From NCBI GenBank assembly GCA_963768805.1, contig CAVYJI010000012.1, positions 3,305 through 67,304 on the forward strand: DNA of 64,000 nucleotides, given 5' to 3'. The translations under genes were made by a program, and so were the position numbers. The notes under the pieces are model-generated. The model was given only the letters and a program-made list of their open reading frames with translations, was not told where the DNA came from and did not search any database. Origin of the DNA: an uncultured Bacteroidales bacterium. Lineage in GTDB: Bacteria > Bacteroidota > Bacteroidia > Bacteroidales > FEN-979. Below are positions 10,100 through 61,909 of the stretch, one piece after another (position 1 is the stretch's first letter; every line of letters starts with the position of its first letter).

Positions 10100-10534
10100 T
10101 CAGGAGTGCCAGATTAATTTCTTTCCGAATCCCAGGCGGTTGTCGGTCATTTTGATCATATCAGGTCTGATTCCCCAAAGGTATAAGTCCGAAAACATGG
10201 CAATTGGAAACTTTTTCAAGTAGGCTTTTCTTGCTGATATGAGGTCTGGCCCTTCCAGTTTAAACATCACCCCGGAGAATTGTATCCCCCTGAGTTTTCC
10301 AATCATTTTTGTCTCGAGTGCAATTGCTCCTGCTGTTAAAAAATTACCCGTCTCAACTGCATCGCGGATGTGACGGGTATCTTCTTCAGAAGTGAAAATA
10401 AAAAGATTATACTTTTCATCGTAAATATAGAAACAGGTGGCGCACCAGGGTTGGGATCCCCGGGTCACGGCAAGAGTAAAAATATGATGTTCCCGGATCA
10501 GTGAAAGGATCCTTTTGTCTATTGGAGTACTCAT
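10100..10534 (-). CDS. yhbP: UPF0306/YhbP-family protein (PNPOx-like split barrel)
   Basis: ORF 10100..10669 overlaps the upstream gene. The ATG at 10534 lies 1 nt after that gene's TAA. Blocks PWCATCFY, SEEDTRH, LRGIQFSG, ARKAYLKKFPIA and IKMTDNRLGFGKKLIW mirror E. coli YhbP as I recall it. Confidence 0.82.
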   Translation of the reverse strand: MSTPIDKRILSLIREHHIFTLAVTRGSQPWCATCFYIYDEKYNLFIFTSEEDTRHIRDAVETGNFLTAGAIALETKMIGKLRGIQFSGVMFKLEGPDLISARKAYLKKFPIAMFSDLYLWGIRPDMIKMTDNRLGFGKKLIWHS

Positions 10535-10535
10535 A

Positions 10536-13500
10536 TTAGAAATCGGTGCTGAGAGAGAGATAAAAAATTGGCTTTTGGATTTTCCACTCCTCCACACCCC
10601 ATGCCAGGTCTCCCCTGATAAAATATCCAAAAATTTTTGTCCGCAGGCCGCCTCCGAAACCTTCCACAAAAGGCTCTTTCATGAGTTCGACTTTGATGAA
10701 GAGTGGTTTGTTATCAATATAAGTAGTGTAGAGTTCGTTGGTTTCTGAGTATGGGTTCCAGCCTGTCCAGGCTGTTCCTGCATCACCAAAGGCAATTATC
10801 TGGAAATTATTAAGAAGTTCGGATCGAATGGGCCTGTTGAAAAAATAACGTATGAACGGAAGCCTGATTTCACTGTTAAAAACGACAAAACTATTGCCAT
10901 TCCTGATATTCTGATCAAACCCTCTCAAGTTTGTCGCCAACGTTTGAAAGATATAATTCTGGTTATTTGCTACGGGTACCTGGTTGTCAAAAGTCGGGAA
11001 CAGCCAATTATCAACCCCTCCCATGTAATATAACAGACGGTTAGTCCCAAATGAAGTGCTGCCGGCAAGACGCAGTGCAAGGATCATACAGCGGTGGATC
11101 TTTTCATAATGACGGAAATCAGCACCTAATATAATGACATTGTTATTTGCACCGTTTATCAACTGATAATATTCGCCGAAAATTTTGTAACGGGTACCGT
11201 TATAGAGGTTAAGTCCCAAACTCCGGGTATTATCGTAGGTAAGTTCTCCCTTAATACTTCCCCAGTAATTATTCAGATCAGGAGTTTGAAGACTGGTTTG
11301 ATCCGTAGAAAGAGTTACCCCACGGTCATATCGTAATGTGGCAGTTCCTTTAATATTGAACACGGGTGTAAACGGATAAGTAGCAATATAGTAAAGCTCA
11401 TTGATCCTGTGACGGATCGTATAATTATCGCTTTCTTCAATTGACTGACGATGGAAAGTGATCTCATGATGCAGACGATATTTGAAATTGGCATAGCTGA
11501 GCAAATATTCGTTGTTGATAAGATCGAAGTTTAAACGTACTCCCCCTGTAATCCGGTAATCTTCCATAAGATCTGTCACGCCAACCATGAAGAGAGCATT
11601 CAACCCAGGATTAATAAAGATAGGGTTTTGAGCTCCTGTAAAAGGTTGGTAAGCTGTATTTAAGTAATTGAAATCTATCTGGGTCACCATCTTGTTTATG
11701 GCATATTCGACATTATAATTAAGGGGACGTGAAGTGCGGTACTTGTTGGTAGTATCTTTTAACGGGATTTGCGAGAATGTCCTGCCATGTTTATTCAGTG
11801 AAGTATCCAAACCCAAGCGGTGAATGGTGTCTTTGACCTTTTCACCGGCTGGCGCAGGAAATGCTCCTGTGTTCCCGGCATTTGATGGTTCATTTGTCCT
11901 GACTGTAGTAAAATGTTTTTTTACAACCGGACTTAATACTTCTTGTTTTTTGGCCGTTGTATCTTTCCCTGCTGATGTAACCTTAGCCCCATACAAACCC
12001 ATTTTGAAATTTTCATAGAAGGTATTCTGGAGGGGTACAGGTTTCAGGAATTTCGGTTCAATCCGGTCTGAAGAAATCAGTATGTTGCGGTTGTTCAGGT
12101 AAGAAACATCCCCTATCATAGCAGCCTGTGTGCTTATATCCTGCTCTAAAATGTTCCTAGAATAATTGGTAATTGGAAATGAGGTTGTAAAATAACGGTA
12201 ATGCATTGCAGTGTCAATATAGGTAATCGCACTGTCAAAACGGGCAAGATAACGGTTATAGATCCCATTTTGATCGCTGAGGTAGCACAAAAAATTATCA
12301 TCATAGGCCATAGGCTGTATCTCATCTACCATTGGTGTGGATGTTATCCTGCGGAGGACAGGTTTCATGCCAGCATAATTATAAATAAAAATATCATGGT
12401 CAGGATGAAGGTCTTTTGGCGATACTACCGGATCAAACCGTATGGTATCATTATCACGGTTGGAACTGAAAATGATCTCACTTGAATGATTGATAAAACG
12501 CGGATTCAGGTCATCATAAATATCTTTCGTGATCTGCTCATAGGATCCGGCAACAATGTTATAGACGTAAATATCCGACTGACCTTTCTGCACGGCAGAA
12601 AGAACAAGTTTGCTGCCATCATCTGAATAGGAAAAATCAAGGATCTTCTGAAAATCGTGAAGGATCTGCAGATCAAGGGTTTTTTCCTTTATTGAATAGA
12701 AATAAAGGTAATCTTCTCCTTTTTTTTCAGTGATGATACCCAGTATCTCGCCTGTCGGATGCCATGCAAGGATAGGAAAAGAGAAATCAGGTTTATCAGA
12801 AATCCTGTAACCTCCCCTATAGATCTTGCGAACTTTTTTAGTTTCAAAGTCAAACAGGTAAACCTTGTAAATCCCCAGATAATGCACACAGTAGGCTGCA
12901 TATTTCCCGTCAGGACTGATCTTCAATTGGCGGTAAACTTTTTCTGTTTTTAGTTTTTTAATGATCTTATTTCCTATGGGATCGGTACGGGAGGAATCTT
13001 CACCCTGGTAGACCCCTTTATAAAAATTGAGCCAATTTGTGACCAGGTCTTTAAAAGAAATACCCAGTACATATAGAAACCCTTTTTCGACATTCCTGTT
13101 CAGACGTGCTATATAAACAATATTGGGAATTGATGATTCACCATATTTCATTGAGATATAGTTCCAGAGAGAGTGCCCGGCATAGGTGGCTTCAATTCCC
13201 TGCAGGTGGTTAAATTTTTCGTATTTTCTCTTCAGGATGGCATCTTTCACCACGTTGTCCATTTCAGGGTTCCATTTTTCAGAGATATAGGAGATTAGCC
13301 CATTCATATACCACTCAGGCATAGTAAAAATCGCGTTGTTCTTGATTTGAGCTCCAATTCCCGAACCATAGATCATTTCGTTTAATATCACCGTCGCGAT
13401 CCCTGCCCTGATCTGTCGTTCAAAATGATTATAATTGCCGTCAAAATATATCATTACTTTTCCACCGATAATCTTGGTAACTCCACCTGTATTATAACTC

Positions 13501-17549: not shown

Positions 17550-17638
17550 GGAGAGATGGCCGAGTTGGTCTAAGGCGCACGCCTGGAAAGTGTGTAATCG
17601 CCAAAAGCGGTTCATGGGTTCGAATCCCATTCTCTCCG
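17550..17638 (+). tRNA. tRNA-Ser (anticodon GGA), class II with long variable arm
   Basis: Hand-folded cloverleaf. Acceptor GGAGAGA/TCTCTCC, anticodon stem CACGC/GTGTG with loop CTGGAAA, variable-arm stem CGC/GCG, T arm ATGGG-TTCGAAT-CCCAT, discriminator G. Confidence 0.95.
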
Positions 17639-17645
17639 CATACAA

Positions 17646-54680: not shown

Positions 54681-55073
54681 ATGCTTGGAACTCTTAAAGA
54701 TACTGTAGAAAATCCCTCAAAATGGCGCCTCAAGATGGCAGAAAAAATTGCTGAAAAGCTCGATCTGATCCGTTTTGGCGTGGAGGCCATTTATCTGATC
54801 GGAAGTACTAAAAGATATGATGCCGGACCTGCAAGCGATATAGACCTGCTTATTCATTTCCAGGGAAGTGAAAAGCAGAAGGCTGAATTACTGGTATGGC
54901 TGGAAGGATGGGGTCTATGTCTGGGTGCAATCAATCAACAGATCACTGGTCAAAAGACCGAAGATCTGCTGGATATTCACCTGATCACGGATGAGGACAG
55001 ACAGAACCGCACTAGTTTTGCGGTCATGATCGGTTCGAACTTTGACCGCGCAAAATTATTGAAGACCAGATGA
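54681..55073 (+). CDS. Minimal Pol-beta-superfamily nucleotidyltransferase
   Basis: 130 aa with a G-S-x10-D-x-D signature (IGSTKRYDAGPASDIDLLIHF). No HEPN partner is visible. Confidence 0.85.
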   Translation: MLGTLKDTVENPSKWRLKMAEKIAEKLDLIRFGVEAIYLIGSTKRYDAGPASDIDLLIHFQGSEKQKAELLVWLEGWGLCLGAINQQITGQKTEDLLDIHLITDEDRQNRTSFAVMIGSNFDRAKLLKTR

Positions 55074-55945
55074 CAAACGGGAAGGCGATAAATAACCTGA
55101 AGACGAACCTGGTCTTTTTTGTGTCCGATCTACATGGGCACAAAGACAGGTATGACAAGCTGTTTGAACAGATAAGGCTTGATCAGCCGGTCATGGTTTT
55201 CATCGGCGGAGACCTGTTGCCCAATTTTGTCCGCCATACAGCAGAAAAAGATTTCATATTAGATTTTTTGATTCCCGGATTCGAGGAACTCAAAGATGGG
55301 CCTTCAGGGTACCCTGCAGTTTTTATGATCATGGGGAATGATGATCCGCGGATCCTGGAAGAGGATCTGCTTCTGGGAGAAAAAAAAGGTTTATGGACAT
55401 ACATGCATAACCGTAAGATCGCTTTTCATTCCTATATGGTTTATGGTTATGCCTGTGTGCCGCCAACTCCTTTCCGGCTGAAGGATTGGGAGCGTTATGA
55501 TGTTTCGAGGTACGTTGATCCGGGTTGTGTATCGCCGACCGAAGGGTACCGGACGGTCAATACTCATGAAGATATTGAATACTGTACGATTAAAAATGAC
55601 CTGGAAGTACTGACCAGTAATGATGATCTGGCTCGTGCTATTTTTCTTTTTCATACTCCCCCCTATCAGACCAATCTGGACAGGGCGGCTCTTGATGATG
55701 TGTTAATCGAACATGTTCCCATGGATGTGCATGTCGGGAGTATTGCAGTCAAACGGTTCATCGAAGAGCGAAAACCCATGATCACATTTCATGGTCATGT
55801 ACATGAGTCGTCAAGAATTACCGGTTCCTGGTCTGAAAGGATTGGTAATACATGGGCTTTTAATGCAGCATTCGATCAAAAAGAATTATCCATTATTAAA
55901 TTCCCGATTGATCATCCGGAATTATCAGAGAGGCTGATCATTTAG
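55070..55945 (+). CDS. Calcineurin-like metallophosphoesterase
   Basis: 291 aa with an ATGA overlap with the NTase gene. Motifs: SDLHG, GGDL, GNDD, HTPP, GHVHE. Confidence 0.9.
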   Translation: MTNGKAINNLKTNLVFFVSDLHGHKDRYDKLFEQIRLDQPVMVFIGGDLLPNFVRHTAEKDFILDFLIPGFEELKDGPSGYPAVFMIMGNDDPRILEEDLLLGEKKGLWTYMHNRKIAFHSYMVYGYACVPPTPFRLKDWERYDVSRYVDPGCVSPTEGYRTVNTHEDIEYCTIKNDLEVLTSNDDLARAIFLFHTPPYQTNLDRAALDDVLIEHVPMDVHVGSIAVKRFIEERKPMITFHGHVHESSRITGSWSERIGNTWAFNAAFDQKELSIIKFPIDHPELSERLII

Positions 55946-55999: not shown

Positions 56000-58669
56000 A
56001 TGTCCCGAGGACCAATAAACGAATTCCGACTGAGAGCCTTTTATCCAAACTATTATGCATTAAAGCAGGTTTTGTCTGGTTCATCTGACAAAGTAAAGTC
56101 AGTGGCAGATTCCATATTCCCATCACCCGAGCTAGAATATAGAGACCCTGAAGATCAGTCATTTCATAAACTTCGCTTAAAAAACAAAGAAGTAATCATC
56201 CTTAGTCAACCGGACAGGGCAAAAGCTACAAAGTACCTGAATCTTCTCATCGCTTCCATAGACAATGATCCTTCCTCCGCAAAAGAAAAAGAAAAGATAT
56301 CAAGGCAATACTTTAAGTCATTGAAATCAAAGTTTGACAACATGGATTTTACTGACAATGAAATTGTGGTTCCTGCTTCGACGAAGAATCCATATGACGA
56401 ACTCCTTCTAAGCCAAAAAGGGAAAGTCTTGCTTGATTTGTACCAGGAAGGCTATCCCGTTCCTGATTTCTGCGTACTTACTTCACGTTCTTATCAGCTT
56501 GGTGAACGTGAGCGGGAATTATGTCTTCAGAAGGCGATCTCTGACCTTGAAAGAATGACCGGTGAAAAGCTGGGAGATCCGGATCATGCACTTGTCTTTG
56601 CCATGCGGTCAGCCACCCCGCATTATATACCAGGCCTTATGCCGACTTTCCTTAATGTAGGTGTTACAAAGCTTAGCTTCAAGTCACTGGAACAAAGGTA
56701 TGGACGTCAAGCTGCAAATAAGATCTACCTGAACAATCTTCAGTCCATTTGCCAGCTCCTTGCCCCGGGACAGGATTTTTACGGTTCGAAGAAAGAGGAG
56801 TGTACGCCTGCTTCCGAAGAGATTGAACACAGGATAGACAGCCTGATTAAAAAAATTGAGATCATCGACAAGCAGATATTATATGATGCACACTACCAGG
56901 CAAAGAAGTTCATGCGATATTCCCACAGCTTTTTTACACAGAACCAGGATCTCATTTATACTTTTCAGCGGGGACATGTGACATATCCTGCATTGATCCT
57001 GCAGAAGATGGTATGGACTATCCGTAATCATGATTCTTATCCCGGAGTACTTTATAGTCGTCATCCTCGTACCGGACTTGGGATGCAGATTGAAAGCAGC
57101 AGGGAAATCTTCGGTGAGGAGATCATGACGGGGACAGTTCGTGCCGAAGAAAAAGAGTATTTTGACCGTGAAGAGATCAAAGAGGAATTTCCTGCTATCT
57201 ATCATTTCACCCCCATGCTTCCTAAACTTGAAGTGAAATTAAAATCCCCGGCTACAATTGAGTTCGCGGTGGAATCTTTTGAGGGCATTTCACTTTTTGC
57301 AATCCTTCAGCTCAATATGTCAGAGCTTACAGGAAGGTCGACACTTCTTACAGCAATCGATCTTTATCAAAAAAAGATCATCTCAAAAAAAAGGGTTATC
57401 CAGCTGATCCGTCCGTACCATTTACGACAGATCTTTTCTGAGAGGATCGACGATGTTTCGCTAAAATCACTAACCTTGTTTGGGTATGGGGTTTCAATTT
57501 TGCCGAGGTCTGCCGTTTCTGCCAGGATCTATTTCTCGATGGCAAAAGCCCTGGAAGCAAAGAAAAGGGGTGAAAAGGTTTGCCTATGCAAGGAAAATTT
57601 CATCCCTTCTGAAACGATCTTCATGGGAGAGCTTGATGCTATCATGAGTATGAGCCCGTTGGCCATTCATGTGGTGACTGCCTGCCTGGGTTATGGGATA
57701 CCTGCTTTCATCAACCTGAGGAACCATCAAATTGATCTGGAAGAAGATGTCATCAGCAATGCCCTTGGGATAACCATTCATGAAGGAGACTGGATCACTG
57801 TATCGAGTAAGCATCATTGCATTTATATCGGGAAAGCAAATTACAAGCCGGCGCGTTTTCAGAAATATCTTGAAGGCATAAAACTTGAGATGGACTCAAA
57901 GGAAGAGAAGGTTTTTATTAACATGTCGAGGGCTTACCATGCATACCAGGAGATCCTGAATACGCTCAAGACAGAAGAGGCCATGAGCCTGCCCGATCTG
58001 ATCAAGCTGATCCGCAATGATTATGACCAGCAGCCGCAGAAAGCCATTGAATTCGTAAACGGCTGGTTTGATGCTCACATGGAGTATTATTTTACCGAGA
58101 TAGTAAAGAGCGGACTAGGTTCTCACATGGACCAGCATAAGATCTATAATTTGCTTACGACCGAACGGAGGATCCTGTTTTTCAAAAGCATGATACTTAA
58201 ATGTCAGAGAGAGAAGCTAAGCGGCTTTTCTGCAGGAGCTTTTATGCTTGGCAGGTTTTTATGCCAGAATCACCCTGTATCATTCTGGAAATCATTTGGT
58301 CCTTCTGATATTGCTTTTTTGCTTAATGAATATGTCCTTTTTGAAAAATATATGCAGGTTCTTTATGAATTCGGAGAACGACATCTGAACAGGATAAAAA
58401 ATAAGATCTTAACGGACGACCTGAATACAATAACCCTGTCCAAGATGAATACGGATACATTTCTTACCTTGAAATTATGCTCTTTTGACTGGGAGGATAT
58501 TGAAACCCGGATCAATCCTGAACACGAAAAAGATACACGCACCCTGATCCGGACTTTAAAACAGCCATATGGGGTTCTTGTCGATTACAACCTTCCCTGG
58601 TCATTTGAGAAGTTACAAGCTGTTTGTGATGCGGAAAAACTGGAAACACCAAGCCCAAATACCATTTGA
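56000..58669 (+). CDS. PPDK/PEP-synthase-like dikinase lacking the PEP/pyruvate TIM barrel (ATP-grasp + swivel His domain + unknown C-terminal domain)
   Basis: 889 aa. Three sets of blocks match PPDK as I recall it:
- AMRSATPHYIPGLMPTFLNVG corresponds to PPDK VRSGA..SMPGMMDT.LNLG.
- YSRHPRTG...GEEIMTG corresponds to FTRNP.TG...GEDVV(A)G.
- In the swivel domain, ILPRSAVSARIYF...SPLAIHVVTACLGYGIP aligns with ...GGMTSHAAVVARGMG, placing the His at codon 557 (57668-57670).
The last ~270 aa are helical and match no PPDK region I know. Confidence 0.85.
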   Translation: MSRGPINEFRLRAFYPNYYALKQVLSGSSDKVKSVADSIFPSPELEYRDPEDQSFHKLRLKNKEVIILSQPDRAKATKYLNLLIASIDNDPSSAKEKEKISRQYFKSLKSKFDNMDFTDNEIVVPASTKNPYDELLLSQKGKVLLDLYQEGYPVPDFCVLTSRSYQLGERERELCLQKAISDLERMTGEKLGDPDHALVFAMRSATPHYIPGLMPTFLNVGVTKLSFKSLEQRYGRQAANKIYLNNLQSICQLLAPGQDFYGSKKEECTPASEEIEHRIDSLIKKIEIIDKQILYDAHYQAKKFMRYSHSFFTQNQDLIYTFQRGHVTYPALILQKMVWTIRNHDSYPGVLYSRHPRTGLGMQIESSREIFGEEIMTGTVRAEEKEYFDREEIKEEFPAIYHFTPMLPKLEVKLKSPATIEFAVESFEGISLFAILQLNMSELTGRSTLLTAIDLYQKKIISKKRVIQLIRPYHLRQIFSERIDDVSLKSLTLFGYGVSILPRSAVSARIYFSMAKALEAKKRGEKVCLCKENFIPSETIFMGELDAIMSMSPLAIHVVTACLGYGIPAFINLRNHQIDLEEDVISNALGITIHEGDWITVSSKHHCIYIGKANYKPARFQKYLEGIKLEMDSKEEKVFINMSRAYHAYQEILNTLKTEEAMSLPDLIKLIRNDYDQQPQKAIEFVNGWFDAHMEYYFTEIVKSGLGSHMDQHKIYNLLTTERRILFFKSMILKCQREKLSGFSAGAFMLGRFLCQNHPVSFWKSFGPSDIAFLLNEYVLFEKYMQVLYEFGERHLNRIKNKILTDDLNTITLSKMNTDTFLTLKLCSFDWEDIETRINPEHEKDTRTLIRTLKQPYGVLVDYNLPWSFEKLQAVCDAEKLETPSPNTI

Positions 58670-58690: not shown

Positions 58691-59260
58691 TCATTTCACT
58701 CTTTCCAACTTATCTTTATCAAATCTGGGTTTCTTACCAAAGACAGAGATGCCGAGCTGGTAAGTTTTGATGTTACCCTCGTCAGTATCATGCCAGCGGG
58801 CTTTAAGTTCTGCTTTTGGAATATAGCCGACGTTGAACAAGGCGGGGTCTGATAACAAGATTAAATCACAGGTGTATCCTATTACCACCACAAAGTGGCC
58901 GTAATCCCATTCATCTTTATAATTTTTAGCAAAATTTTCTTTGCTTCCCCATGCCTGGAGCATAATGATCACCGGGATGTTACGGTTGATCTGCGCTATG
59001 AGATTGCTGATGGTCATTTTGTGTCTTACGATGGCTTTTAAGCCCTGCCTGTGAAAGAACTTAACGATGTTCTTTACGTACGTTCCATGTTTTGGATCAG
59101 TCTTAAGATCGTGTGCAAGGTCTAACTCACGGAAATCTTCTCCATAATAGACCATGACCTTCTGAACGCAGTCAGCTCCGCATGTAAATGAGGTTCCCTG
59201 CCTGTCCTGTACAGGGAAATCAAGAATTTTAACATCTTTATTATCTGATAATTCTTTCAT
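58691..59260 (-). CDS. Stand-alone C39-like papain-fold cysteine peptidase
   Basis: 189 aa with a candidate catalytic Cys in TSFTCGADC, a His in YGHFVVVIGY and a downstream Asp (LSDPA). It has no signal peptide and no ABC-transporter fusion. Confidence 0.75.
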   Translation of the reverse strand: MKELSDNKDVKILDFPVQDRQGTSFTCGADCVQKVMVYYGEDFRELDLAHDLKTDPKHGTYVKNIVKFFHRQGLKAIVRHKMTISNLIAQINRNIPVIIMLQAWGSKENFAKNYKDEWDYGHFVVVIGYTCDLILLSDPALFNVGYIPKAELKARWHDTDEGNIKTYQLGISVFGKKPRFDKDKLERVK

Positions 59261-59600: not shown

Positions 59601-59774
59601 CTACAGGAAGTTTATTGTGAGTCAATAATTACGATATAGCAAACATTACTTAATGATACAGATAACTATCAGAAGGTTCTATTAAACAGGATGGTGTTAA
59701 CAAAACTTCCATCACTATAAAACAAAAAAAGCCCTGAACTATTTATAATTCAGAACTTTAATACTTTGCCTTTG

Positions 59775-59847
<73 letters not shown>

Positions 59848-59913: not shown

Positions 59914-60648
59914 ATGGAACTAGTCATTGATCTTGGTAATACGAATCAAAAAATCGCATTGTTCGATGCCGGGAAACTTATTTGGATCGAGGCAAAGAAG
60001 CGGATCAGCCTTGCACATGTCAGGAAAATAGTTAAACATAATACAGGCATAGATTCCTGTATAATGTCAACAGTAGTCAAGATCCCCTCTGTGCTTCAAT
60101 CATTCATGGAAAAACAATTACGCTTTATTCTTCTTGATGAATTTACTCCATTACCAATTCAAAATCATTACCATACTCCAGGAACACTAGGTAAGGACAG
60201 GTTGGCTGCTGCTGTAGCAGGATTTTATCAATTCCCGGGTCAAGCCGTGCTGATCATCAACGCAGGGACGGCAATTACTTTTGATCTCGTCACAGATAAA
60301 GGTGAATATCTCGGTGGTTCGATCTCGCCAGGGATGCAAATGCGTTTCCGCGCCCTGCATACTTTTACAAGGCAGCTGCCGTTATTAACATACACAGACA
60401 TTGATTTTCTGACTGGTGACGATACTGACAAGTCTATCCTTTCAGGAGTTATTAACGGAATAGCTGCGGAAATGGAAGGGATGATTGCCGGTTATCAGAA
60501 AGTGTATCCGGGGATAAAGGTCATCCTAAGTGGCGGTGATCTGAATTATTTTGTTAATCGGCTTAAAATTAACATCTTTGCATTACCAAATATTGTAATC
60601 TACGGACTCTACCAAATTCTTGCTTTTAATGATAAAAAACCACTATAA
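59914..60648 (+). CDS. coaX: Type III pantothenate kinase
   Basis: 244 aa with the LVIDLGNTN N-terminus, a GKDRLAA block and the AGTA motif. Confidence 0.94.
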   Translation: MELVIDLGNTNQKIALFDAGKLIWIEAKKRISLAHVRKIVKHNTGIDSCIMSTVVKIPSVLQSFMEKQLRFILLDEFTPLPIQNHYHTPGTLGKDRLAAAVAGFYQFPGQAVLIINAGTAITFDLVTDKGEYLGGSISPGMQMRFRALHTFTRQLPLLTYTDIDFLTGDDTDKSILSGVINGIAAEMEGMIAGYQKVYPGIKVILSGGDLNYFVNRLKINIFALPNIVIYGLYQILAFNDKKPL

Positions 60649-61909
60649 TTACCACTACTTACTGTCTGTTCTTTTCCTCCTGATATATTGTTCCTTATCT
60701 GCCCAGACAATCATAACCTCTCCCTATTCACGATATGGTGTCGGTGATCTGTCTGCCAATGCCAATGCATGGAATCTGGCGATGGGTGGAACCAGCATCG
60801 GTTTGAGGAGTCCATATCATGTAAATATTAACAATCCTGCATCTTATACAGCTTTTGATTCTACTTCTTTTCTTTTTGAGGGTGGGGCTTATTTTAATTA
60901 TTCACAGCTGAGTACCAATACTCAGACAACCACACGTACTTATGCATCGCTTGGTTACCTGACATTCGGCTTTCCTGTTACCAAGTGGTGGAGAACATCG
61001 CTGGCGCTGCTTCCTTTCAGTAATGTAGGGTATAATATTTCTTCTGACGCAGAAATAATGGGGGTAGGACATGTCACCAGGATTTATACGGGTTCAGGAG
61101 GGATCAATCGTTTTATGTGGGGAAATGGATTTAAAATCACGAAGAATTTATCGATCGGAATTAATGCTTCCTATCTTTTCGGGAACATGCAACAGGAATC
61201 TTCTTCTACATTCCCGGATTCAGCTTACTACTTAAATTTCAGGCAAGACAACGACATTGACGTCAGTGGTTTTTATTTCGATTATGGGGCACAATATACG
61301 GCAAAGCTGAAAACTTTAAAGCTGACTGCAGGTGCTGTTTTTGCAACAAGCACAAAGGTAAATGCAAAGACCGATTACCTTTCTACAACATATTTCACGA
61401 CCAACGGCACTGACTATCCAAAAGATACTATTCAATCATCGCCAGGTGTCCGTGGCAGCATCACGATCCCTATGATGTACGGTTTTGGCCTTTCGTTAGA
61501 AAAGCCTGATAATTGGCTTATCAGCGCTGATTACAAATGGCAGAACTGGAAGAATTACAAGGCCTTTGGTGTAGGTGATTCCCTGGTCAACAGTTTCCAA
61601 GTGAGAGCAGGAGCCGAGTTCATTCCTGATATCAACAATTATTCAAGTTATATCAAACGGATCCATTATCGCTTTGGGTTGATGTACAACAGTTCGTACC
61701 TGGAGCTTAGGGGAAAGCACCTGAATGAATATTCAATAAGCCTGGGTTTAGGGTTGCCGATCCGTGGACTGAAAACAGTCATCAACCTCAGCGCCGAATT
61801 AGGAACACGCGGAACAACACAATCGGACCTTATCAGCGAAACTTACGTCAATTTCGTAATCGGTTTTTCAATTTATGAACGGTGGTTCTTAAAACGCAAG
61901 TATTTTTAA
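60629..61909 (+). CDS. Uncharacterised outer-membrane beta-barrel protein (conserved between coaX and lptC)
   Basis: ORF 60620..61909 starts with TTG, and an ATG lies at 60629. It has a signal peptide ending SAQ, the SPYSRYGVGDL motif, alternating beta-strand periodicity and a C-terminal aromatic residue (KYF). Confidence 0.78.
   Translation: MIKNHYNYHYLLSVLFLLIYCSLSAQTIITSPYSRYGVGDLSANANAWNLAMGGTSIGLRSPYHVNINNPASYTAFDSTSFLFEGGAYFNYSQLSTNTQTTTRTYASLGYLTFGFPVTKWWRTSLALLPFSNVGYNISSDAEIMGVGHVTRIYTGSGGINRFMWGNGFKITKNLSIGINASYLFGNMQQESSSTFPDSAYYLNFRQDNDIDVSGFYFDYGAQYTAKLKTLKLTAGAVFATSTKVNAKTDYLSTTYFTTNGTDYPKDTIQSSPGVRGSITIPMMYGFGLSLEKPDNWLISADYKWQNWKNYKAFGVGDSLVNSFQVRAGAEFIPDINNYSSYIKRIHYRFGLMYNSSYLELRGKHLNEYSISLGLGLPIRGLKTVINLSAELGTRGTTQSDLISETYVNFVIGFSIYERWFLKRKYF

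Follow-up and report, generated by a model that had tools for sequence, protein, structure and literature searches.

What would a kinase of the pyruvate phosphate dikinase (PPDK) type do if the barrel that handles phosphoenolpyruvate (PEP) and pyruvate were exchanged for an unrelated domain? The question is raised by a gene in a 64,000-nucleotide stretch of DNA from an uncultured Bacteroidales bacterium (GenBank assembly GCA_963768805.1, contig CAVYJI010000012.1, positions 3,305 to 67,304). This whole stretch is called the window below, and coordinates given without a locus name refer to it. The standard example of a phospho-histidine domain that travels between two active sites is found in PPDK-type enzymes. 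In the window protein, the phosphotransfer core is of this known kind, and the domain on the acceptor side and a module at the N-terminus are new. Our reading, which we hold to be probable with modest confidence, is that the protein is an ATP-driven phosphotransferase with a swivelling histidine, in which the PPDK barrel is replaced by a helical module holding a second active site.

The gene is an open reading frame (ORF) of 889 codons plus a stop codon at positions 56000-58669 of the forward strand; all of its features given below lie on the same strand. In a public protein collection its product has one 100% identical entry and 844 homologues in all. From the ORF list of the window and the homologues, it can be described as a PPDK-derived protein with four modules: an N-terminal extension, an ATP-grasp domain, a swivel domain and a C-terminal helical domain. 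A preliminary description of the locus, made by eye from the sequence, had found the N-terminal two-thirds to be PPDK-like and the last third not, and profile and sequence searches place this division far beyond chance. When all PDB sequences are searched with phmmer, pyruvate phosphate dikinases are the sole matches, and residues 136-627 align with residues 18-524 of the C. symbiosum enzyme (1dik; E 2.7e-20). The NCBIfam model TIGR01828 is covered from profile position 17 to position 524 of 865 (E 1.2e-33), with a score of 116.1 bits against an equivalog cut-off of 843.45 bits. Pfam reports only PPDK_N, below threshold. Residues 628-889 and 1-135 have no match in Pfam, NCBIfam or the PDB sequences. 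Another NCBIfam model, NF004531 (PRK05878), matches residues 119-542 (E 7.6e-21) with 74.3 bits against a cut-off of 456. This is a PPDK-named profile of 534 residues, a length near that of truncated forms such as VadK (see below), which we assume to belong to the model.

Structure prediction can be used to extend the comparison. The AlphaFold2 model of the full-length protein, calculated from 85 homologues, has a mean predicted local distance difference test score (pLDDT) of 82.8 and a predicted TM-score (pTM) of 0.75. Foldseek matches this model to PPDK 1kbl (E 9.3e-28, TMq 0.47), to rifampin phosphotransferase (RPH) 5hv1 (E 1.5e-6, TM 0.17-0.19), to PEP synthase 2ols (E 2.1e-5) and to HpeI 9goj (E 4.5e-5). 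In superposition, the C. symbiosum PPDK structures (TMq 0.47-0.49) fit better than the plant structures (0.36-0.39), a weak hint that, in the model, the swivel domain is turned toward the ATP site.

The ATP-grasp nucleotide-binding domain occupies residues ~133-445 (56396-57334) and includes a PPDK-type helical subdomain at residues ~236-322; its limits come from the alignment with PPDK 18-~340 and the Foldseek match to 1kbl. Conservation was followed in 253 full-length family members, among them some that share just 24-30% identity with the window protein. The frequencies given below refer to this set unless another is named. Four residues of the ATP site are the same in 253/253 members. Lys140 (56417-56419) is the equivalent of Lys22 of PPDK and RPH, which contacts the ATP phosphates; Arg203 (56606-56608), which lies within R-S-x(6)-I-P-G-L-M, is that of PPDK Arg92; and Glu421 and Gln437 (57260-57310) correspond to PPDK Glu323 and Gln335 at the Mg/ATP site. 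In RPH, K22 is essential, and the change Lys22Ala abolishes activity (PMC4844700). Two other positions of the site have changed: the counterpart of PPDK Arg337 is Asn439, which is Asn in 95% and Asp in 5% of members, and the counterpart of PPDK Asp321 is Thr or Met.

The phospho-histidine swivel domain (PEP-utilizers mobile domain) spans residues 491-612 (57470-57835), as placed by alignment with PPDK 390-510 and by the Foldseek match to 2fm4. This structure, the isolated phosphoryl-carrier domain of PPDK, fits the model with a TM-score of 0.83 and a root-mean-square deviation of 2.3 A. The region at the center of the preliminary description, 57470-58669, runs from residue 491 through the stop codon and thus comprises the swivel and C-terminal domains. 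There, the catalytic histidine was said to be retained at codon 557 (CAT, 57668-57670), in a degenerate version of the usual G-G-x-T-S-H context with neither Thr nor Ser before the His. Both statements agree with the phmmer alignment, in which His557 (sequence context MSPLAIHVVTACLGYG) pairs with the catalytic His455 of PPDK (SPLAIH-VVTACLGYG versus GGMTSH-AAVVARGMG). Thr453 and Ser454, which precede the PPDK histidine, are replaced by Ala555 and Ile556, and the Arg six residues past it is also missing. These replacements are general in the family, with Ala at position 555 in 99.6% of members and Ile or Val at position 556. Conservation of His557, the predicted phospho-carrier, had been singled out for checking, and it proves to be complete: the residue is invariant in 85/85 close homologues, in 31/31 diverse homologues with identities down to 24%, and in 253/253 full-length members. 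Pfam does not report PF00391 for the window protein at E<=1; a homologue from a second clade of the family (P0162) scores above the cut-off of this model (29.2 versus 23.1 bits). By its strong structural match to 2fm4 and its conserved histidine, the swivel domain belongs to the PF00391 superfamily.

Past residue 620 or so, the preliminary description saw nothing like the PEP-utilizer barrel, only a helical sequence rich in Leu, Phe and Lys. The composition of the region is as described (Leu 11.7%, Glu 8.2%, Lys 7.8%, Phe 6.6%), and modeling and searches lead to the same view of its fold. The C-terminal domain, residues 633-889 (57896-58666), belongs to no known family or fold. Residues 633-878 contain helices only in the full-length model, and when residues 628-889 are modelled alone with AlphaFold2 (30 sequences), the result has 15 helices and 0 strands (pLDDT 83.3, pTM 0.77). 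A profile built from 30 C-terminal domains gives nothing at E<=10 in a PDB library that includes every PPDK chain, and Pfam gives nothing for the window domain or for any of the 30 members. With the isolated domain as query, Foldseek matches in the PDB are generic helical repeats (best E 1.1, TM <=0.26), with no PPDK and no TIM barrel among them, and a search of BFVD gives no viral structural neighbour (best E 0.7). Residues 633-889 are thus not a TIM barrel, and the window protein lacks the PEP/pyruvate TIM barrel of PF02896. Because the barrel, the swivel motif and the score all fall short of what defines PPDK, the protein lies outside the PPDK equivalog.

In degree of conservation, the helical domain equals the catalytic core (windowed identity 0.66-0.75). 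Strict conservation in it falls on glycines or on polar residues of catalytic type: G707, H709, G742, G746, G751, E777, K783 and Y784. Gly707 and His709 are present in 100% of members, including those only 24-30% identical to the window protein. With Ser708 they make up an invariant G-x-H (58118-58126), a candidate second phosphoryl site or catalytic residue; in the model, His709 opens helix 709-718 directly after a lower-confidence, Gly-containing loop. A second cluster, G742-F-S-A-G746-A-F748-M-L-G751 (58223-58252), is modelled with lower confidence as a Gly-rich loop (G742-G746) ahead of a helix, and G742, G746, F748, G751 and W763 are each present in at least 99% of members. The third comprises Glu777 (99.2%), Lys783 (97%) and Tyr784 (99.6%, and invariant in the diverse set) on helix 768-791 (58328-58351). 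Phospho-histidines such as HPr His15, Enzyme I His189 and PPDK His455, and phosphate sites generally, are typically found at helix N-termini. The predicted setting of His709 would resemble these, a resemblance rather than a test. The conservation of the domain points to a second active site.

In the mechanism that we propose, the ATP-grasp domain would bind MgATP, and His557 would be (pyro)phosphorylated as in PPDK, PEP synthase, RPH and VadK. The swivel domain would then turn on two linkers. Linker 1 is helical and covers residues 446-490 (57335-57469), with model helices at 445-457, 463-469 and 472-478 and an alignment to the PPDK linker; linker 2 covers residues 613-632 (57836-57895) and is placed from the model and from the end of the PPDK alignment at residue 627. 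The phosphoryl group would be passed to the second site in the helical domain, formed by G707-x-H709, loop 742-751 and E777/K783/Y784. The final acceptor might be a ligand bound at this site or His709 itself; as the preliminary description supposed, it is probably something other than pyruvate.

The distribution of the helical domain can be counted as support for this reading, as it is found fused to this kinase core only. A hidden Markov model (HMM) of the C-terminal domain was used to search 1.84 billion representative proteins and gave 110 clusters. In the full-length matches, the domain always lies at residues ~620-900 of proteins of ~880-905 residues. Occurrence of the domain on its own or fused to other catalytic domains, raised in the preliminary description, was looked for in this search, which gave the present architecture and no other. 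Two apparently stand-alone copies of 266 residues (P0126 and P0153) are on contigs of ~1 kb, with reading frames open upstream into swivel sequence (…EGDWVTISS…), and a 2212-residue protein matched in six short stretches (P0221) looks like a spurious repetitive match. Since all full-length matches share one architecture and the stand-alone ones are fragments, the domain is exclusive to this kinase core. One protein, P0177 (1550 residues; L092:5408-10060), is a head-to-tail duplicate of the ATP-grasp/swivel/helical unit without the N-terminal extension, and keeps the swivel His and the G-x-H in both copies. No copy of the domain was found on plasmids, and a literature search found no description of the family.

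The family itself is widespread. Among the best 120 of the 844 homologues, identities to the window protein are 47-100%, 105/120 have lengths of 850-899 residues, and the annotation is either ‘hypothetical protein’ or (from JGI) ‘PEP synthase/PPDK’. Relatives occur in at least 354 genomes when one genome per GTDB species is scanned, a lower bound, as the scan used two peptide patterns. The best 80 of the loci are all from metagenome-assembled genomes, of Bacteroidales, Lentimicrobiaceae, Prolixibacteraceae, Saprospiraceae, Cloacimonadota, ‘Chlorobiota’ and Neomarinimicrobiota (Marinisomatota); isolate and contig names indicate lakes, groundwater, sludge digesters and animal guts as some of the sources. 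Carriers include the Bacteroidales chromosomes OY820914.1, OY781097.1, OZ245940.1 and OY781463.1, also metagenome-assembled. The second clade, with ~31% identity to the window protein and equal length and architecture, is found in Krumholzibacteria, Aminicenantes and other Acidobacteriota.

Several observations count against a swivelling-histidine transferase with two active sites. The swivel motif has no Thr or Ser before the histidine and no Arg six residues after it. At the ATP site, the counterparts of PPDK Arg337 and Asp321 are changed to Asn/Asp and Thr/Met, so the chemistry there may differ from that of PPDK. A single pocket that unites the conserved residues of the helical domain within reach of His557 is a prediction from sequence. 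Finally, the gene neighborhood gives no clue to an acceptor: when all ORFs within ±6 kb are clustered, no neighbor recurs in more than 8 of 86 loci.

Comparison with known systems helps to place the protein. PPDK (EC 2.7.9.1; 1dik and 1kbl) is its best match in both sequence and structure. The two have in common the ATP-grasp domain with its helical subdomain and the Lys22/Arg92/Glu323/Gln335 set, the two linkers, the central swivel domain and the position of its His, the N-to-C order of domains and a similar length (889 versus 874 residues). Unlike PPDK, the window protein has a helical domain in place of the TIM barrel and an extra N-terminal module of 130 residues; it lacks the G-G-x-T-S-H motif, with neither Thr nor Ser before the His, as well as the Arg after it, has Asn for R337 and does not reach the equivalog score. 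In PPDK, the TIM barrel is also the dimer interface.

VadK (Rv1127c of Mycobacterium tuberculosis) is a truncated PPDK that acts as a His autokinase with a regulatory role (PMC13400623). Like VadK, the window family has a PPDK-derived core of ATP-grasp and swivel-His domains without the PEP/pyruvate domain. VadK stops after the swivel domain (~490 residues), however, whereas the window family adds a helical domain of 260 residues with an invariant His, and the N-terminal module; the two are also found in different phyla. A two-domain protein of the NF004531 type does not describe the window protein, in which 260 more conserved residues continue past the swivel domain and the score stays below the cut-off. 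RPH is likewise made up of an ATP-grasp domain, a swivel His and a non-barrel module, and is an instance of dikinase chemistry with a new acceptor. Its order is ATP-grasp domain, rifampin (RIF)-binding domain and C-terminal swivel His, and in the RIF-binding domain, which is alpha/beta, there are parts that resemble EIIA and HPr (PMC4844700). The preliminary description held that known dikinases place their acceptor-binding module in exactly the position of the helical domain; this is so for PPDK and PEP synthase but not for RPH, in which the swivel His is C-terminal (PMC4844700). The swivel domain of the window protein is central, its Foldseek similarity to RPH is weak, and it does not fit the definition of the RPH family. 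In glucan water dikinase, too, the acceptor module is not known to take the PPDK position. PEP synthase (PpsA; 2ols) and the two-component aromatic kinases HpeHI (9goj) and MarK (PMC12167813, PMC12624787) belong to the common superfamily of ATP-grasp and swivel-His phosphotransferases; they are farther from the window protein than PPDK is, and use acceptor modules that bear no relation to the helical one. Exchange or loss of the acceptor module on this core has precedents in RPH and VadK; these speak for our reading and also limit the surprise of finding such a change here.

Four proteins at the far end of the family bring in a different gene context. The most distant matches of the C-terminal domain profile (P0220, P0223, P0229 and P0177; E 1e-4 to 1e-24) represent a sister branch, in which the domain is shared over roughly its first 160 residues only; all four keep the swivel His, G707, H709 and Y784. 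In five independent loci, a sister-branch PPDK-like gene directly adjoins a long enolase-like gene of 714-1201 codons (L091:10389-13994, L092:2370-5297, L095:2484-5384, L093:13343-15487 and L099:~10230-12659). The long enolase-like proteins are circularly permuted, with the Enolase_C barrel ahead of Enolase_N. Three aligned forms of 966-1201 residues have an N-terminal region of ~350 residues with an invariant HExxH; the 714-residue form (L093) is without it. Genes for GAPDH, a PGK-like protein, canonical enolase or pyruvate:ferredoxin oxidoreductase (PFOR) are found near these loci. The long enolase-like family has at least 1169 matches at E<=1e-20, canonical enolases possibly among them; the named matches among the best 120 come from Planctomycetota and Saganbacteria/WOR-1 and are annotated as ‘enolase’ or hypothetical.

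As a separate observation, L095:1-10469 (and likewise L097 and L098) has three PPDK-like paralogues around one long enolase-like gene. In L095 these are an 835-residue protein with a C-terminal D-P-D-P-x-H-K-P tail, a 703-residue protein with a canonical G-x-T-S-H and the 822-residue P0220, and four PFOR subunit genes follow ~1.4 kb downstream. Proteins of 1666-1888 residues were considered as possible Rosetta-stone fusions of the enolase-like and PPDK-like proteins and rejected, as they are tandem enolase-like duplications. A metagenome scan for further sister-branch loci gave 4 loci only, the derived patterns being unselective. The gene context of the sister branch shows that the family, taken in its wider sense, has its roots at the PEP/pyruvate node. 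The enolase-like link itself is confined to that branch: no long enolase-like gene is present in the window or in the 85 main-clade loci.

Other explanations can now be set against a transferase with its own second site. The one that we take most seriously, though we think it unlikely, is a regulatory autokinase like VadK, in which His557 would only be autophosphorylated, signaling would go through protein contacts and the helical domain would be a docking or dimerisation module. VadK itself demonstrates that a barrel-less PPDK core can work as a His autokinase (PMC13400623), the match to NF004531 is in keeping with such a role to the extent that VadK belongs to that model, and variable gene context fits a stand-alone regulator. 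Against it, no partner gene is conserved, and what is kept over identities of 24-100%, namely the G-x-H, the Gly-rich loop and E777/K783/Y784, resembles a site for catalysis or a ligand more than it does an interface. Less likely again, and put forward tentatively, is an internal relay from His557 to His709, a self-contained route from ATP to His to His after which a metabolite or protein would be phosphorylated. If true, the relay would parallel the transfer from Enzyme I to HPr, in a PPDK-derived protein and on an unrelated fold, and the sister-branch module would couple it to a permuted enolase-like barrel.

Because the sister branch is tied to enolase-like, GAPDH, PGK and PFOR genes, a link to PEP and pyruvate is possible, and the helical domain may cooperate with a separate barrel. 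Carried over to the main clade, this would mean that the domain recruits a separate barrel protein in trans, in a split PPDK-like enzyme of central carbon metabolism. We regard such an arrangement as improbable. The five loci with adjoining permuted enolase-like genes and nearby glycolytic or PFOR genes speak for it, as does the retention of G707, H709 and Y784 in the sister branch; against this, the window and the 85 main-clade loci are without the enolase-like gene, the named long enolase-like members are from Planctomycetota and Saganbacteria and none is from Bacteroidota, and only the first ~160 residues of the C-terminal domain are common to the two branches. A catalytically dead pseudo-enzyme with a structural role would account for the degenerate swivel motif without G-G-x-T-S before the His, the missed Pfam cut-offs for PPDK_N and the PEP-utilizers domain, and the changed counterparts of R337 and D321. 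It is nonetheless very unlikely: K140, R203, E421, Q437 and H557 are kept in every one of the 253 members, across several phyla, and since they are invariant over identities of 24-100%, a dead or merely structural protein is not expected. There is hardly any chance that a TIM barrel, strongly diverged, makes up residues 620-889 and that the protein is a simple divergent PPDK. All that suggests it is where these residues lie in the chain and a total length close to that of PPDK, and the candidate was rejected on the zero strands of two independent models (pLDDT 83), the absence of any profile match at E<=10 or Foldseek barrel in the PDB, and the end of the TIGR01828 match at profile position 524, with 116 bits of the 843.

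The fourth module of the protein is at its N-terminus. Residues 1-130 (56000-56389) make up a small alpha/beta module of no known family, as judged from the model and from conservation. The extension of ~130 residues noted in the preliminary description is present and alignable in the homologues. It carries the motif F-R-L-R-A-x-Y-P-N-Y at residues 9-18 and is modelled with strands at 9-14, 44-48 and 55-59 and helices within 62-112. R12, Y15 and N17 are conserved in homologues, R12 in at least 95% of the 253 members. No Pfam or PDB profile matches the module.

The surroundings of the gene can be described briefly. Upstream by 54 nt is an overlapping gene pair on the forward strand, encoding a nucleotidyltransferase (54681-55073) and a metallophosphoesterase (55070-55945). 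The former is a minimal enzyme of 130 residues (NTP_transf_2, MntA-like), the latter is calcineurin-like with 291 residues, and their genes share 4 nt; the pair matches the PADLOC phage-defence-candidate models PDC-S09 (E 7e-8) and PDC-S10 (E 3e-7). PADLOC defence models give no match for the 889-residue protein. The pair is seen once more, at L016 857-3813, on the opposite strand, where the nucleotidyltransferase is inside a protein of ~705 residues. Downstream, in convergent orientation to the PPDK-like gene, is a gene for a 189-residue C39-like cysteine peptidase (58691-59260, reverse strand; Peptidase_C39_2, E 4e-12). The peptidase stands alone, without an ABC transporter joined to it, and is not conserved at other loci. 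The wider neighborhood is ordinary chromosome (AsmA, CoaX, LptC, glycosyltransferases). It includes a 429-codon ORF between coaX and an LptC-like gene (60620-61909, forward strand), whose product starts with a sequence like a signal peptide and matches nothing in Pfam at E<=1e-5, and a tRNA-Phe (GAA) gene at 59774-59847 on the reverse strand; a tRNA-Ser (GGA) gene is at 17550-17639 on the forward strand.

Across the family, the commonest neighbor is a protein of 535-540 residues, present at 8 loci and identified by Pfam as CTP synthase in L005. Loci of the main and the second clade, looked up singly, have unrelated neighbors too. The median gap upstream of family genes is 129 nt. No Rfam family, riboswitch or leader RNA was found at 54-60 kb of the window or at 10 loci where the upstream gap is long. 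The gene behaves like a chromosomal gene that stands alone.

What the family adds concerns the acceptor side of these enzymes. To our knowledge, each acceptor module so far (rifampin-binding, carbohydrate-binding in glucan dikinases, that of the aromatic-ketone kinases, and the barrel-less form in VadK) has brought a new biological role. For the helical module, no relative can be detected in Pfam, in the PDB or in BFVD. It is found on this kinase core only, has its own invariant His and conserved Glu, Lys and Tyr, and is carried by hundreds of uncultured anaerobes of the Bacteroidota, Cloacimonadota, Marinisomatota, Krumholzibacteriota and Acidobacteriota. Misleading labels such as PPDK or PEP synthase could inflate pyrophosphate (PPi)-dependent glycolysis in metabolic reconstructions from metagenomes. 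With the acceptor identified, a new phosphotransfer reaction would be described, and behind the tie of the sister branch to permuted enolase-like genes there may be a variant of the PEP node that has gone unrecognised.

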